A stretch of 62,459 bases of DNA, filler included, from Acidimicrobiia bacterium (GTDB lineage: Bacteria; Actinomycetota; Acidimicrobiia; Spongiisociales; CAZKJJ01): the NCBI GenBank assembly GCA_046759765.1. It is 30 parts of 30 records of this genome, joined end to end, with 100 filler letters (N's around TTAATTAATTAA, not from the genome) between each part and the next. Parts side by side here need not be neighbours in the genome. Positions count along the whole stretch, not along the records: positions 31,924 to 34,011 come from JBHICV010000287.1; 29 more parts are not named here. The stretch is one strand, 5' to 3'. Position numbers and translations under genes: made by a program. Shown here piece by piece: positions 2,431 through 36,177 of this stretch. The notes under the pieces were generated by a model. It saw only the letters and a list, made by a program, of their open reading frames with translations. It searched no databases and was not told where the DNA came from. How positions within the stretch are numbered: the first letter of the stretch is position 1; every line of letters starts with the position of its first letter.

Positions 2431-3064
2431 AGGCGCCCTGAGCAACGACCGCGCCGAGGTTGCCCCTCTCCGCCAAGGCCGGAAACACGGTCCGCTCAAA
2501 GGACAGTGGACCCTCCGGAAACCAGCTCATCGCCTCTTTAGTCAGGAGATAGATGCCGGCGCTGATCGTGTCGGCTGGGGCGCGCTCCGGCGACGGCTTC
2601 TCGACGAATTGAGTGACCGTGCCGTCGCTGTCTGTAACGACGACCCCGAACGAAGACGGATCGTCGACCCGGCTCAACACCAACGTCGGGCGGAACGGGC
2701 CGGCTCCAAAGACAGCAGCAAGATCCGCATCGAACAGGACATCGCCGTTGAGCGTCAAGAAGGGACCGTCCAACTTATCGAGGAGGGCACGTACCGGACC
2801 GGCCGTGTCGAGCGGATGCTCTTCAACTGCCAACGAGACGTGGGCCAGATCGGGGCGTTCCTCGAGATAGGCCTCCCAAGCTGACTGCCATGGGGCAGCA
2901 ACGGCGAGAAAGATCTGCGAGACATCGAGGTCCGCGAGCAGACGTACCTGATACTCGAAGAACGGCAGTCCGGCCACCGGGAGGAGTCCTTTGGGACGGG
3001 AATCCGTGAGCGGCCACAGGCGCGTTCCGCGGCCTCCGAGCAGCAGAACGGCCTGTTTGATCAC
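2431..3064 (-). CDS. Sugar-phosphate nucleotidyltransferase (mannose-1-P guanylyltransferase-like), 3' truncated
   Basis: LLGGRGTRLWPLT..PK, LDTAG, NGD and FVEKP motifs; GTG start overlaps the upstream stop. Confidence 0.88.
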
Positions 3065-3774
3065 CGAAGGATCATATTGCGGGGAGTAAACCGATGACGC
3101 ACGAGGGTCCAGAGGGCCGGAAATCCGTCCTTCCACGAGATCTTCTTGCCCTCGCCTGGCTCTCGACCTGCATAGCGGATCGGGACCTCCCAGATTCGAT
3201 GGCCCAGACGGAGAACTTTGGCAGTGATCTCCGGCTCGATCTCGAACCGGCTCGACTCCAGACGGAGCGAGCGGGCCAGGTCCCCGTCGAGGAGCTTGAA
3301 GCACGTTTCCATGTCCGACAGAGTCGTGTTGTAGAGCACGTTGGTCATCAGGCTCAGGAAACGATTTCCGATCCAATGCCAGAACATCATGTTGCGGCGC
3401 TCCCCCGTGAATCGGGATCCGTAGACCGCCATCGCCTGGCCCTCGATCAGAGGCCGGAGCATCGCCTCCCAGTCCCGAGGGTCGTACTCCAGATCGGCGT
3501 CATAGATGATCACGGCGTCGCCGGTGCTCGCTTCGATGCCGGCCCTGACCGCGACTCCTTTCCCCTGGTTCTGATCCCAACGTAAGACTCGAACCGTGGA
3601 GTCCCGTAGGCGCTCGATGATCTCGCCTGAGCCATCCTCAGATCCGTCATCCACAACGATCAGCTCTCGGTCGACGGGAAGATCGACCTCACGGGCCCGC
3701 CGAATCGCCTCTGCCACCGTGTTGCGCTCGTTGTAGACCGGAATGATCACCGACAGCTTCTCGTACTCCTTCAC
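3061..3774 (-). CDS. Glycosyltransferase family 2 (DPM1-like)
   Basis: SVIIPVYNE, VDDGSEDG, NQGKG, DADLEYDP, DMETCFK motifs. Confidence 0.92.
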   Translation of the reverse strand: MKEYEKLSVIIPVYNERNTVAEAIRRAREVDLPVDRELIVVDDGSEDGSGEIIERLRDSTVRVLRWDQNQGKGVAVRAGIEASTGDAVIIYDADLEYDPRDWEAMLRPLIEGQAMAVYGSRFTGERRNMMFWHWIGNRFLSLMTNVLYNTTLSDMETCFKLLDGDLARSLRLESSRFEIEPEITAKVLRLGHRIWEVPIRYAGREPGEGKKISWKDGFPALWTLVRHRFTPRNMILR

Positions 3775-30434: not shown

Positions 30435-31823
30435 ATGAGTACTGCTGAGGCTGGTGTTCGGGCCTCAGAGTCTCCGGTAGGTGTCCTCTACGACGGGTTC
30501 TTGTCCTATAGCCATGCGGCTGATGATCTGTTGGCTCCGAGACTGCAGGCGGGGTTGCAGCGGTTTGCGAAGCCGTGGTGGAAACGCCGAGCCCTCAGGA
30601 TCTTTCGGGATGACGCTTCGCTGTCGGCTAATCCGCATTTGTGGTCTTCGATCACCGACGCACTCGATGAGTCGGGTTGGTTTGTGTTGTTGTTGTCGCC
30701 TGATGCTGCGGCGTCTGAGTGGGTGAACCGGGAAGTCGAGTACTGGCTCTCCCACAAGGAGGCGTCTCGGATTGTGCCGGTGGTGACCGAGGGGGAGTTC
30801 ACATGGGCGGACCGTGACATCAGCCCTGACACGACGGCTGCTCCGCCTGCTCTCTATGGGGCGTTTTCTGAGGAGCCCCGCTGGGTGGATCTGCGCTGGG
30901 CCCGCACTGACACCGACCTCGATCTGCGAAACACCCAGTTCAGAGCTGCGGTGGCCGATATCGCTTCGGCTATCCGGGGGGTGCCCAAGGACGAATTGGC
31001 ATCCGAGGAGGTCAAGCAGCACCGGCGCACGATCCGCATGGCCTGGGCTGCTGGAATCTCAGTCGCGACGCTGGCTCTCCCGGCCGTGGTTGCCGCCGTC
31101 TACGCCGTCGGAAAGGGGAACGAGGCCGAGGCGCAGGCTCGGATCTCCCTGTCGAGGGAGCTGGCCGCCTCTGCTATCAGTCAGCTCGACCGAGATTCCG
31201 AGCTGAGCCTTCTACTGGCCCTGCAGGCCGCAGAAGTATCCCGGGCCGTCGACGGACGCGTGCTGCGTGAGGCGGAGGAGGCGCTGCATGCCGCACTGCA
31301 GCGGTTCCGGCTCGAGCTGACGCTGCCCGAGACAGGTCGGGGCGAGTTCACAGCTGATGGTCGGTCCTTTGTTGCGGCCGACCCGATCTCCTATGGCGAT
31401 TATGTGGGGACGGGAAGCACTTCGGGCCGGCATCGCTTCGCTCGTGAGATGGACGGGGAGGTGGTGCTGTGGGATGGCGAGAGCGGAGAACGGATCGCCG
31501 GCTGGCCCGCCGATGCTCGGGGCGTCGTCGATCTGGCGCTCAGTCCTGACGGCGCGCTGCTGGCGACCACCGGCGACGACGGGGTCAAAGTCTGGGACAT
31601 GGCTGCTCGAACCGAGAAATACCCTCCTCTTTCGCTTCTGGGGCCGATCACGCCGGTTTTTAGCCCCGATGGGAGGTACCTGGCGGCAACCAGCATCCTG
31701 GGCCGGGTGAATGTATGGGACGTTGCCACCGGCGACACAGTTCAATCAATTCCGCACCCGGGTCTCAGACCTGCAGTTCGTGCTGCGATACAAGGCATCG
31801 CCTTCAGCTCCGATGGCTCCGTC
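30435..31823 (+). CDS. TIR domain - TM - WD40 repeat protein (3' truncated)
   Basis: YDGFLSYSH, IFRD, SEWVNRE (catalytic Glu position), TM helix, SPDG..VWD repeats. Confidence 0.88.
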
Positions 31824-32164
31824 NNNNNNNNNNNNNNNNNNNNNNNNNNNNNNNNNNNNNNNNNNNNTTAATTAATTAANNNNNNNNNNNNNNNNNNNNN
31901 NNNNNNNNNNNNNNNNNNNNNNNCCGCCTGTACTCGGATCCAGCAACATACGTCAACACGTCAGAGCTATGGGAGATCCATGTGGGCGCTTGGGCATCGA
32001 ATAAACGTGCCGAGGCCGAAGGCTCGTTCCGTGGCACCTAAGACTGTGGTATCTCCGACTGGGTAGAACACAGCCACCCAGCCGAGAACATCGAATACGG
32101 CAACCTCTAGGCGACATCTACCGCATTGGAGGGATGCGGGCAGCCTGCCCTTCGCCTACTTCAG

Positions 32165-32192
32165 GTAGCGCATATGTGCCGATATGGGCGGG
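32165..32192 (-). repeat. dif-like 28-bp site
   Basis: + strand GTAGCGCATAT-GTGCCG-ATATGGGCGGG. Confidence 0.9.
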
Positions 32193-32284
32193 TCGACCTT
32201 CGCCGAAAGGTTGTGTCGGCATTGGGGAGGGAACCGTGGCGTTTGGTGTGTGCGTCCAACCAGAGACATCAGCGGGAGGTTGAC

Positions 32285-32653
32285 ATGAGCGTCCTACGCA
32301 TCTCGGTGGCCCTGGCCCTTGTAGCCATGTTGGCAGCGGGATGCTCGGAAGCATCGCAACAGACCGAGGTAAGAGCAGTGGTTGCGCAACACTTCTCCCA
32401 TGAAGGCCTAGAGACGGGCGACCCGGTCCCTGGTGCCACCCTGCGCCTCTACCAAGGCGACACCGTCGTAATGGAAACCGTTCTCGATGAAGCAGGGACA
32501 GCCCTGATCGGCCCGGACCCGGGCTCGTACGACGTGCAGATCTCGCTCGACAGCACAGACCCGGAGTGCCTCTGGGGCGAAACCGTGTTCGGCGTTGCGT
32601 TCCCCTCATCGCCGCTCACTCTCGAGGTCTCACACATCTGCGCAGGCCAATAG
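32285..32653 (+). CDS. Lipoprotein (cassette-like gene)
   Basis: GGAGG RBS, lipobox LAAGC, prealbumin-like beta fold pattern (PVPGA..PGSY). Confidence 0.8.
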   Translation: MSVLRISVALALVAMLAAGCSEASQQTEVRAVVAQHFSHEGLETGDPVPGATLRLYQGDTVVMETVLDEAGTALIGPDPGSYDVQISLDSTDPECLWGETVFGVAFPSSPLTLEVSHICAGQ

Positions 32654-32665
32654 CCTCTTCCCCAC

Positions 32666-32694
32666 CCCACCCATATGTGGCCGATATGGCCGGT
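32666..32694 (-). repeat. Degenerate partner dif-like site
   Basis: CCCACCCATAT-GTGGCCG-ATATGGCCGGT. Confidence 0.7.
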
Positions 32695-32710
32695 CCCGAA
32701 GGCCCTACAG

Positions 32711-32738
32711 ATAACACATATGTGCCGATATGGGCGGG
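32711..32738 (-). repeat. dif-like 28-bp site
   Basis: ATAACACATAT-GTGCCG-ATATGGGCGGG. Confidence 0.88.
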
Positions 32739-33226
32739 TGTTTGACAGCCGACCGGCGTGACGTCGGTTGCCCTTGAGAATGTACGGTTCGGGAGCTGCC
32801 AGCAGAAGCGACTCATTGCGGATGCTGTTGCCCTTGAGGAGATGATGTGGCCTCCGATTCAACGAGTGATCCGATCACACACCGCAGCCAATTCGCCGAC
32901 GGTGATCGATTGGTGGCTGCTGTCTCCGCAGAAGGTCGCGGTGCTAGACGATGAGGCGATCGCTTCGATTTGGTTGCATTTCGATCCAGATGCTCTGGGG
33001 AGGAGGGAACGCTCGAACGTCGAATTCTGGGCGCCGTCATCAGACCCTGAACAGATGTTTCGCACTTCATGGAGCGAAGCCTTTGGCGTAACGAGCTCGT
33101 TGCCTCCCAGGCACGGGAGGAGGGCATGCCTGTCATTCATCAATCAGGCGACGAAACCGTCGAGGATCTCGTGGCAGCAGCCCTCCGGACCATCGGCAAC
33201 GAGGGTGCCGACTCCTAGCGGTCGAG

Positions 33227-33254
33227 GTAGCGCATATGTGCCGATATGGGCGGT
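33227..33254 (-). repeat. dif-like 28-bp site
   Basis: GTAGCGCATAT-GTGCCG-ATATGGGCGGT. Confidence 0.9.
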
Positions 33255-33403
33255 TGGTTGTCGAGGAATCTGTGGCTGTAGACGAGCCAGCAGTGGGGCG
33301 TAGAATCAATGGTCACGACGCTCATTTGGGGATGAGCCGTCTTGGGGGCGACCCAACACAGTCGGGTTGCCCCTGTTCTGGGCTCGGTCTCAAGTACGCC
33401 ACT

Positions 33404-33420
33404 GAGCCGATATGGGCGGC
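33404..33420 (-). repeat. dif-like half site
   Basis: GAGCCG-ATATGGGCGGC; the other arm is degenerate. Confidence 0.7.
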
Positions 33421-33498
33421 TGCCTGATGGGAGCCTAACTGCGGAGCTAGTCAGGTTGCCGTCCACAGGATTGTCTCTGGGCAGCTATCGACTCCGGG

Positions 33499-33702
33499 GT
33501 GAGACTGACGTGGATGAGTCTGAGCCGGGGGGCCAGGGTGCGAGACGACGCCGACTCAGGGACCGGCCGGTCCGAGCTGCTACGCGTTTCTCGCTGGCAG
33601 CTCATCAGATGGTGGGTCAGAGTTCAGGCCACCGACTACTTGCTGCTATTCGTCCTCGTAGCTGTCGCAATTCTGCTCGCGATCTACTTCGCCCGCCGTT
33701 AG
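33499..33702 (+). CDS. Small membrane protein (cassette-like gene)
   Basis: C-terminal TM YLLLFVLVAVAILLAIYF followed by ARR. Confidence 0.5.
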   Translation: MRLTWMSLSRGARVRDDADSGTGRSELLRVSRWQLIRWWVRVQATDYLLLFVLVAVAILLAIYFARR

Positions 33703-33776
33703 AGGCTTCGATAGTTGAGACCGTTGGCACACGATTCGTCGGGCCCGTCCGGATGTTCATTCCGCCCCGCCGTTCG

Positions 33777-33804
33777 CTAGCGCATATGTGCCGATATGGG
33801 CGGC
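33777..33804 (-). repeat. dif-like 28-bp site
   Basis: CTAGCGCATAT-GTGCCG-ATATGGGCGGC. Confidence 0.9.
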
Positions 33805-33914
33805 TGCCATGGCATGAATCCTCCGACGTCGGGCATCGCCCAGTCGTCAATTCGGGACATCCGCCTCGCCCTTTCACAAGCGCACGAGGTTGCATGGAAC
33901 TGAAAGGGGACAGT

Positions 33915-34011
33915 GTGGAACCTATCCACGGGATCGTCCTCGTGGACGTCGCAGAAGGGGGCGGGAAGTTCGAGGCCGAGGTGCTCAGAGGTATGGGACA
34001 TCCGGTCGTCG
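33915..34011 (+). CDS. Receiver-like domain protein start (3' truncated)
   Basis: AAGGGGA RBS; IVLVD..EVLRGMGHPV beta-alpha-beta pattern. Confidence 0.4.
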
Positions 34012-34111: not shown

Positions 34112-36177
34112 GAACAACACGACAGGTGGTCGCGTTCGATGTCGCCACCGGCGCGGTCCAGTGGACATATCACGACCCGACCACGATCGGCACCTTCAGG
34201 AGAAGGAGGGTCGGCCTGAGCCCTGACGAGGAATTGGTCACGGTCCAGATCTTCGACATCCCTCTTGTTCAAGACGAGTCGGTCGCCGTTGACGCGGAGG
34301 GCAACGACGAGAACCCTGCCCGGATCGTGGTGCTCCGTGCGTCCGACGGTGAGGTGGTGCGAGTCCTTGAGCCTGGCGCTTGTCGGTTTCTCAATGCTTG
34401 GGGCAACGGGTTCTCCCGAGATGGACAATGGTTTGCGGTATTCACCGGTACTGGGGGGTGCTTCGACGATCCCGATGCCGACTGGGTGACGGTGTATGAC
34501 ACCTCAACTTGGGAGGAGGCGTATCGCCTCCAGATCGATGGTGCGTTCGGGGAGGAGGCGGTGTTCTCGGAGGATTCGAGTCGGGTTCTCCTCTACGGAG
34601 GGGGCCGCCCGACCGAGCTGAGGTCGTTTCCGGAAATGGAGTTGATCAACCGTCTTGATGAAAGCGCTATGGCAGCTCTCAGCCCCGACGGCCAGAAGGT
34701 CGTGCAGTCCTTCTCCATCGTGGTCGTGTCGAGGCCGCTGATTGTGGACGCTGAGACCGGCGAACGCATCGGCTTCCTCGAGTCGGTGGACGATTTCCTC
34801 TCGCTCGACCCCCTTTCGTTCTCTCCGGACGGAACAAAGATTGCGGCCACGACCCATGGAGCTGACTTCGTTTTCGACGCGGAGGACGGACGGATGTTGG
34901 CCAAGCTTGGTGAGCGCGGGTTCACTTTCTCGCACTCGTTCACTGAGGATGGGTCGATGCTGCTCACCGCCACGGAAACCGCCCTGCTGTTGTGGGATCT
35001 CGGTGGCGGTCTGGACGAGTTGGGTGTTCCAATAGAGCCAGCGGACGTCGAAGCGGTCTGGATCAATCCCAATCAGGTAGCTGACGGGCCGAACCTTGCT
35101 GTAAGGCTCTTATTTCCCGACGAGAACGGCGAGATACTGGACTCCAGAGTCGTCACCGCTCTGCTCGATCCCGAGACAGGACAGGTCAGAGATCAGGTAT
35201 CCGGTTTTGGCGTGCAGCTGCCGGACGGGCGTTTCTTTGTCTCACGACAGAGAACTGGCCAGGATGGGGAACGGGTTATCGGTCCTGTCGTGATCTGGGA
35301 TCCGGCTTCGGACTCGTTCGTTGAACTCACCGACTGTGCCGCCCCTGAGTCGGCGATCGATCAGATAAGCGAGATCGACTGTCCGGGAGGCGAGCCCTTC
35401 TATGGAGCCAACGACTGGTTCTTCGGGTCTGTCGTAGCGGCCCTCGATGGATCGTTTTTCGCGGCAGAGTCGTACGCGCCAGTGGGCTCAGAGAGGTCTA
35501 TACGGGTATGGGACGGGGAGACCCTCGACGTCCGATCCGAGTTCGAGGTTCCTCGAAGCCAACATGTCACGGCTGCCGGTGCGGGCTGGCTGGGGACCTT
35601 TGACAGCGATCTCTTTGGTTGGCTCACTGTCTATGACGTTGACTCGGGGGCCGTGCTCGCCGAACCTTCAAAGGCGACAGACAGGCCTTTTTGGGTGTAC
35701 GCGGTTGCTCCGGACGGGTCGCTGCTGTACGCCGCGGACTTGGAGGGGAGCGTTTGGGTCTTTGACACCTTCAGCTGGGAGACCGTGGCCACCTGGGAGG
35801 CGCATGACGCGCGACACCGAGGGCTGGCCCTCTCCCCCGAGGGAACCAGACTGGTGACGACGGGGGAGGACGATTTCGTCAAGGTGTGGGACGTCAGTCG
35901 AATAAGAGACCGATCCTCGGTCACAGAACCCCTGCCGCTTCTCGACCGTATCCCCGCACCCTTCCCATCCGACGCAGCCTGGCTATCGGCAGATCGCCTG
36001 GCAGTGTTCCTGGGCAACGACGCCAACTGGCTCGAAGTGTCACTCTCCATCGACGAGTTGGTCACGAGTGCCCGGCAGCGTCTCACCAGAGGCTTCACAG
36101 AAGGCGAATGCGCCAACTACCAGATCGACGATCCCTGCCCAACGACCCTCGAAGCCATCCAATCAGGCAGCGCATAA
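34112..36177 (+). CDS. WD40 beta-propeller protein (5' truncated)
   Basis: Multiple SPDG/FSxDG..W(D) repeats; C-terminal ARQRLTRGFTEGECANY..PCPT. Confidence 0.88.

Follow-up and report, generated by a model that had tools for sequence, protein, structure and literature searches.

The 28-bp direct repeats described here belong to a gene-cassette system, probably one of a new class. The account that we lean towards is that they are the recombination sites of a cassette system of one actinobacterial order, with double-strand recombination at simple sites driven by REC, a tyrosine recombinase linked to the arrays; we infer that REC, not host XerC, does the recombining. Cassette shuffling is known mainly from integrons and the dif modules of Acinetobacter. 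If this is a separate system served by an enzyme family of its own, cassette platforms have evolved more than once from Xer-like parts, and a searchable 28-bp site would expose a pool of accessory genes that attC-based tools are not designed to detect. If the account is right, one protein of ~300 aa and a 28-bp site would also make a compact one-enzyme recombination tool. A literature search, mainly of open-access papers, found no description of the system.

The window, by which we mean the whole stretch of DNA that was analysed (62,459 nucleotides), consists of 30 separate short contigs joined by N linkers. The array is confined to one contig of 2,088 bp, C287, and thus stands without neighbours in the window (Table 1). 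An earlier note on this DNA had described four sites there, and their starts, their spacings (546, 516 and 550 bp) and their common orientation on the + strand are all borne out. With a 16-bp core and up to three mismatches, nine matches are found in the window against 0.25 expected, and none of 100 shuffles reaches nine. A half site had also been reported at 33404; it is real, with its match starting at 33406. About 45 bp before site 2, the position of a second site in relatives, lies a decayed dyad that scores -7.7 with the CCGGCA-type profile and is no match to it.

Cassette boundaries on C287 were inferred from relatives: each cassette starts directly behind one spacer and includes the whole of the following spacer. 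The lipoprotein-like gene of the first cassette has a weak match to PF13620 (E 8.6e-5) and a homologue with 53 % amino acid identity in another genome, G135, in a site-free context. What had been called an uncertain ORF in the second cassette resolves as a truncated and frameshifted piece of a P-loop kinase-like gene; the full-length gene encodes ~209 aa, with homologues at 46-62 % amino acid identity in site-free contexts of G274, G280 and G153, and one sequencing run shows a one-base insertion at 33057. The 67-aa ORF of the third cassette has no Pfam or NCBIfam match and no homologue among the loci searched. A supposed receiver-like gene after the last site is not confirmed: 39 codons are present, without a Pfam match.

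Table 1. Sites, cassettes, genes and insertion elements. Positions count along the window, except for the two copies at loci L215 and L216.
Feature	Contig	Position	Strand	Remark
Whole contig	C287 (JBHICV010000287.1)	31924..34011		rest of window is unrelated contigs
Site 1	C287	32165..32192	+	11-bp arm, 6-bp spacer GTGCCG (32176-32181), 11-bp arm
Site 2	C287	32711..32738	+	three changed positions, all in left arm
Site 3	C287	33227..33254	+	
Site 4	C287	33777..33804	+	
Cassette 1 (546 bp)	C287	32182..32727	+	boundary inferred
Cassette 2 (516 bp)	C287	32728..33243	+	boundary inferred
Cassette 3 (550 bp)	C287	33244..33793	+	boundary inferred
122-aa lipoprotein-like gene, cassette 1	C287	32285..32653	+	signal peptide and lipobox by inspection of the sequence
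P-loop kinase-like gene fragment, cassette 2	C287	32788..33218	+	5'-truncated, frameshifted near 33057
67-aa ORF, cassette 3	C287	33499..33702	+	hydrophobic stretch at C-terminus
ORF start, 39 codons	C287	33894..34011	+	cut by contig end
Decayed companion dyad	C287	32666..32694	+	7-bp spacer; one base longer than the sites
Right half site	C287	33406..33420	+	right arm preceded by last four spacer bases
Copy of site	C274	6909..6936	-	
Copy of site, contig end	C288	36167..36192	-	stop codon of a 683-aa ORF within its arm
Double site	C293	46011..46083	-	
Degenerate site	C293	46580		
Left half site, then IS end	C274	4899		
Left half site, then IS30 end	C293	44878		
IS30-type element copy		L215:3147-4325		
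IS30-type element copy		L216:8395-9573		

Other contigs of the window hold features of their own. On the contigs neighbouring C287 we note, by eye, an ORF resembling a TIR domain with WD40 repeats (30435-31823) and a long beta-propeller-like ORF (34126-36177) whose end lies within a cassette site. A 91-bp tandem duplication at a contig start (29715-29896) is possibly an assembly artefact.

A profile search of the source genome (G000) found 31 full sites on 18 contigs and none in the reversed-genome control; half sites and sites with lengthened spacers are present in addition. All 13 neighbouring pairs in this genome are co-oriented, and 30 of the 31 sites lie on contigs shorter than 10 kb. Among 251 genomes of the same order, 26 contain the exact core, and they represent seven families including the source genome's own; none of 394 genomes sampled outside the order contains it. 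Clustering and orientation had been put forward as a test: the sites are clustered, and over all loci 135 of 146 neighbouring pairs are co-oriented. Among the 11 pairs that are not, nine diverge, and five of these nine enclose REC. Across 230 site contexts the 11-6-11 geometry holds with an invariant asymmetric spacer, whose conservation had been seen in the four copies on C287, and the first base of the site is G in only 57 % of sites. There is a second spacer type, which makes orientation alternate only at double sites and array ends.

Records titled Gammaproteobacteria, Kiloniellales and Gemmatimonadetes raised the possibility of spread across phyla, which we reject because three such records, the one titled Gemmatimonadetes not among them, match G054, G184 and G231 of the same order and the core is missing from all 394 genomes sampled outside it. 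Several MAG titles at L022-L080 (Gammaproteobacteria, Kiloniellales) conflict with placement in the source genome's order. Among viral contigs there were no arrays, and the 80 single matches found there are about what chance would give by a rough size estimate.

In relatives the arrays tend to lie near tRNA genes. Of 13 arrays in the five genomes with the best assemblies, 12 are within 3.1 kb of one, and the array is on the 3' side of the tRNA gene at 15 of the 16 loci measured (33 scanned). The 18 site-bearing contigs of the source genome, 17 of them shorter than 10 kb, carry no tRNA genes. In G130 the entire bidirectional array (L217:4999-15948) is flanked by two tRNA-SeC calls, an arrangement that recalls an integrated island.

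Comparison of related genomes shows that cassettes move as units. At one tRNA-Arg locus G024 and G101 share blocks of 1,766 bp (99.5 % identical) and 853 bp (99.1 %) that end at sites, and between the blocks lie ~0.8 and 1.2 kb of DNA without a match. Part of the array is repeated at a second tRNA in G101, a 305-bp unit is repeated within one array of G094, and another pair shares 959 bp from site to site at 91 %. Identical cassettes in different arrays also place the crossover, for each arm stays with its own flank. Over the pairs with common upstream DNA (n = 13) left arms differ at one position in total and right arms at 22; over those with common downstream DNA (n = 15) left arms differ at 29 and right arms at two, the pairs being non-independent and one of them a chance linker match. 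This segregation holds down to the base adjoining the spacer, and on such comparisons the crossover is shown to fall within the 6-bp spacer. Gain, swap and duplication of cassettes, with breakpoints in the spacer, are thus what strain comparison finds where the earlier note had called for a search for gain, loss or reordering, and we consider it very likely that the sites bound mobile cassettes. No usable circle or clean deletion junction was found in the contigs of four sequencing runs from one study, one of which may be the source of the window itself; apparent site-to-site skips in run contigs have a short side of 20-27 letters and are explained by other repeat copies.

The segregation of arms also largely refutes a REP-like or other non-recombinational repeat, such as an HUH-mobilised, regulatory or RNA element. 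The site does begin with GTAG followed by an imperfect palindrome, as a REP would, but its arms part with their flanks across an invariant spacer and its copies stand in clustered direct arrays. No Y1/RAYT gene was found in the six genomes searched (MAGs, 92-99 % complete), folding of the 28-mer is no stronger than that of shuffled sequence (z -0.8; also +0.3), and a search of Rfam gave no match. We therefore share the doubt already expressed about a REP origin and regard it as highly improbable.

Most cassettes carry one gene: 108 of 137 cassettes in the fetched loci (median 848 bp) have a single predicted gene. By codon-score gene picks, 70 cassette genes face one way and 59 the other, with no orientation bias. 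We searched 120 cassette proteins, most of those picked, together with two controls against Pfam. The matches include cyclases, hydrolases, methyltransferases, SnoaL and glyoxalase proteins, transporters and regulators, and many proteins have no match. One cassette gene from an environmental MAG (L224:1372-2976) is predicted to encode a beta-lactamase-family (serine hydrolase) domain, PF00144.

The sites have a parasite of their own. An element that we assign to the IS30 type from its motifs, with a 392-aa transposase (PF13936 and PF00665), inserts in the site spacer, apparently duplicating 2 bp, so that half sites and longer spacers result. Half sites often adjoin it, several of them in the source genome, and three half sites of the source genome lie beside transposase fragments. 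Target-specific IS parasites are a feature shared with pdif modules, whose sites are likewise targeted by IS elements according to PMC10132070.

REC was reached through weak recombinase matches near arrays. It is a simple, Xer-like tyrosine recombinase of ~300 aa (at L171, for instance, 2856-3746) that scores below the XerC, XerD and IntI cut-offs (79 bits with the IntI model TIGR02249, cut-off 265). Among solved structures it is nearest in sequence to XerD, with which its catalytic R, HxxR, H and Y align, and the large insertion is absent. In G094, G130, G014 and two metagenome contigs REC lies between two inverted, divergent sites ~1 kb apart, with arrays running outward whose last member is often a lone site with its spacer displaced by one base; a single recombinase gene stands between sites at L170, L171, L172, L177 and L186. 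Two loci of G094 carry REC modules that are 96 % identical, and the modules of G130 and G014 agree at 94 %; identity stops at the sites, and by this comparison the module has itself moved. The single Xer-like recombinase that had been postulated for the array thus has a counterpart in one REC family linked to arrays in relatives.

Linkage to the sites is closest in the clade of the query REC, where a site is adjacent in eight of eight rows (SH-aLRT 99, quick tree). REC is present in 8 of 26 site-positive genomes versus 15 of 224 others, an odds ratio of 6.2 among non-independent kin, with G261 left out as unpublished and the duplicates G051 = G094 and G046 = G054 counted once. Eighteen of the 26 have no REC match at E<=1e-40, with at most nine candidates scored per genome. 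REC was not found in the source assembly, where the best matches are XerC/XerD at 33-38 %, nor in G024, G101 or G231; G184 retains a 54-aa fragment (87 %). Since G024 and G101 are 95 % complete in 6-7 contigs and show recent cassette shuffling with no detectable REC, the enzyme may there have been lost recently, act in trans or be unneeded.

The shuffling in G024 and G101 would also fit recombination by host XerC, alone or together with XerD or REC, in which case the arrays would be a direct-repeat variant of dif modules and REC an IS-like passenger on the same sites. The array genomes that were examined encode homologues of both XerC and XerD (on contigs C69 and C33, respectively, of the source genome), and by eye the commonest right arm agrees with the host XerC box at 9 of 11 positions in the source genome and 10 of 11 in G130. 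However, none of 308 sites has an XerD-type arm, in line with the earlier reading of the arms as not XerD-like, whereas the single host dif candidate has one. The pairing of a gene module with an empty module does recall the C/D pairs and fused CD modules described in PMC13141974. Against this, the layout with REC at the centre of the array is fixed, and REC and the sites tend to be found in the same genomes. The site is moreover absent from 225 of the 251 genomes of the order, in all of which XerC and XerD are to be expected. We judge recombination by host XerC unlikely, though not negligibly so. The dif candidate itself, a single-copy chromosomal sequence with one XerC-type and one XerD-type arm, lies at C31:1144-1177 of the source genome (compare L329, L330 and L331); its pattern has one match each in G094, G014 and G130 and none in G024 and G101.

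Sites often come with a companion. A second inverted dyad lies within 130 bp upstream in 68 of 202 sites, compared with 2 and 0 of 202 in controls, mostly at a fixed offset of about -43, and the linker of the double site measures 15-18 nt in all 45 intact doubles. Such regularity would be expected if the ~73-nt double site acted as a folded single strand like attC, with strands exchanged where the spacer ends on its right side; single sites would then have arisen by decay, and the system would be analogous to an integron but use an enzyme other than IntI. Intact doubles do form a long hairpin in which two single bases bulge out (z -5.3, -6.3), but the window's own double folds no better than shuffles, and recently moved cassettes have no recognisable second dyad. 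The crossover map is compatible with a cut at that edge, yet the outer arms show no covariation (7.67 observed versus 7.70 shuffled; 3.20 versus 3.02 across cassette ends), and the slight excess in the inner arms (3/2,000 shuffles) may reflect kinship. The even gene orientation and the lack of an IntI above cut-off in all 17 array genomes also speak against this reading, which we find improbable. A gene-facing attC reading, with crossover in the upstream dyad, was set aside because the main site's two arms segregate separately.

In the REC-driven account, a cassette consists of a right arm, usually one gene, and a left arm, joined through the invariant asymmetric 6-bp spacer. Because both arms are alike, REC could act alone, cutting cassettes out between direct sites to give double-stranded circles, which it would reinsert at any site. 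Recombination between a site in the left arm of an array and one in the right would invert the centre, so that the arms trade cassettes. New cassettes may enter as a gene plus a 17-bp empty spacer module, which would give the double sites, and the extra site would later decay. Double sites may record the first making of cassettes, a question that is open for integrons too. The 31 sites of the source genome would be enzyme-less remnants like CALINs, unless REC lies in unassembled DNA. A bolder picture, on which we are evenly divided, is that integrons and dif modules are joined by a third class of bacterial cassette platform: a Xer-like recombinase, encoded by a single gene and self-mobile, whose own end sites now serve as docking sites, which loads cassettes outward on both sides, whose centre can flip to trade cassettes between arms, and whose pool is shared across several families of an order in which we detected no integron integrase.

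The earlier note had proposed a new cassette system analogous to integrons or pdif modules, and what we find in IntI, gene orientation, XerD-type arms and alternation sets the system apart from both. Parts of PMC13141974 describe pdif modules on Rep_3/OrfX plasmids of Acinetobacter, with 28-bp 11-6-11 sites and crossover centred on the spacer. As far as those parts go, the two systems share the 28-bp site, the 6-bp spacer, crossover within the site, the shuffling of accessory genes, and empty and fused modules between direct sites. Unlike pdif modules, the present arrays have no XerD-type arm, main sites that are direct rather than alternating, two fixed spacers rather than varied ones, and, in some genomes, a dedicated recombinase gene at the array centre; they also form chromosomal islands near tRNA genes in an Actinomycetota host.

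With integrons and CALINs the system has in common mostly one-gene cassettes, direct sites, a linked tyrosine recombinase and enzyme-less arrays, and intact copies of the long (double) form of its site are predicted to fold into a hairpin as integron sites do. No complete integron was found in Actinobacteria by PMC4889954. The enzyme here, unlike that of integrons, is not IntI by the TIGR02249 cut-off and carries no extra insertion in the catalytic domain; its module is mobile and arrays extend from it both ways, genes face either way, and most sites are simple 28-bp dyads. In shufflons (Rci/sfx) a single enzyme likewise acts on direct as well as inverted sites, but they swap gene ends, whereas here whole genes are gained or lost. 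Xer integration of the CTX-phage type uses paired inverted, foldable dif-like sites; the present arrays differ in having no phage genes, with viral matches at chance level.

In being an arm-less Xer-like enzyme in a small mobile unit, REC resembles RitA/B/C, TnpA of Tn554 and IntBrujita; it is one gene rather than a trio or pair, and the parts of PMC8138268 and PMC3414803 consulted describe no cassette arrays for those enzymes. The RIT-element trio of adjacent, overlapping recombinase genes is absent at the five single-gene loci listed above. A likeness to the end repeats of RIT elements is possible.

REC has a much wider family, and 87 of 108 REC-family loci have no family site, so this wider family is not tied to arrays; a site is adjacent at 16 loci (L194 and L172, both among these, are one locus) and distant at five. 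Metagenome relatives fall into at least 6,512 clusters at E<=1e-60 among 8,000 scored, and plasmids hold five distant relatives (36-51 %). The array-less genes are probably an abundant, undescribed one-gene mobile element. At L240-L242, L187-L193 and L261-L313 the ends of such genes show conservation of a 6-bp core and of the inner arms. Many array-less loci among those listed have, by eye, end motifs that are related but weaker, and the largest clade has a different core. These motifs suggest that the one-gene mobile units form a family and that a single branch of it went on to build arrays. A more distant second recombinase, with its own palindromic site and a different spacer, adjoins a REC fragment and an array at L173:5373-6307.
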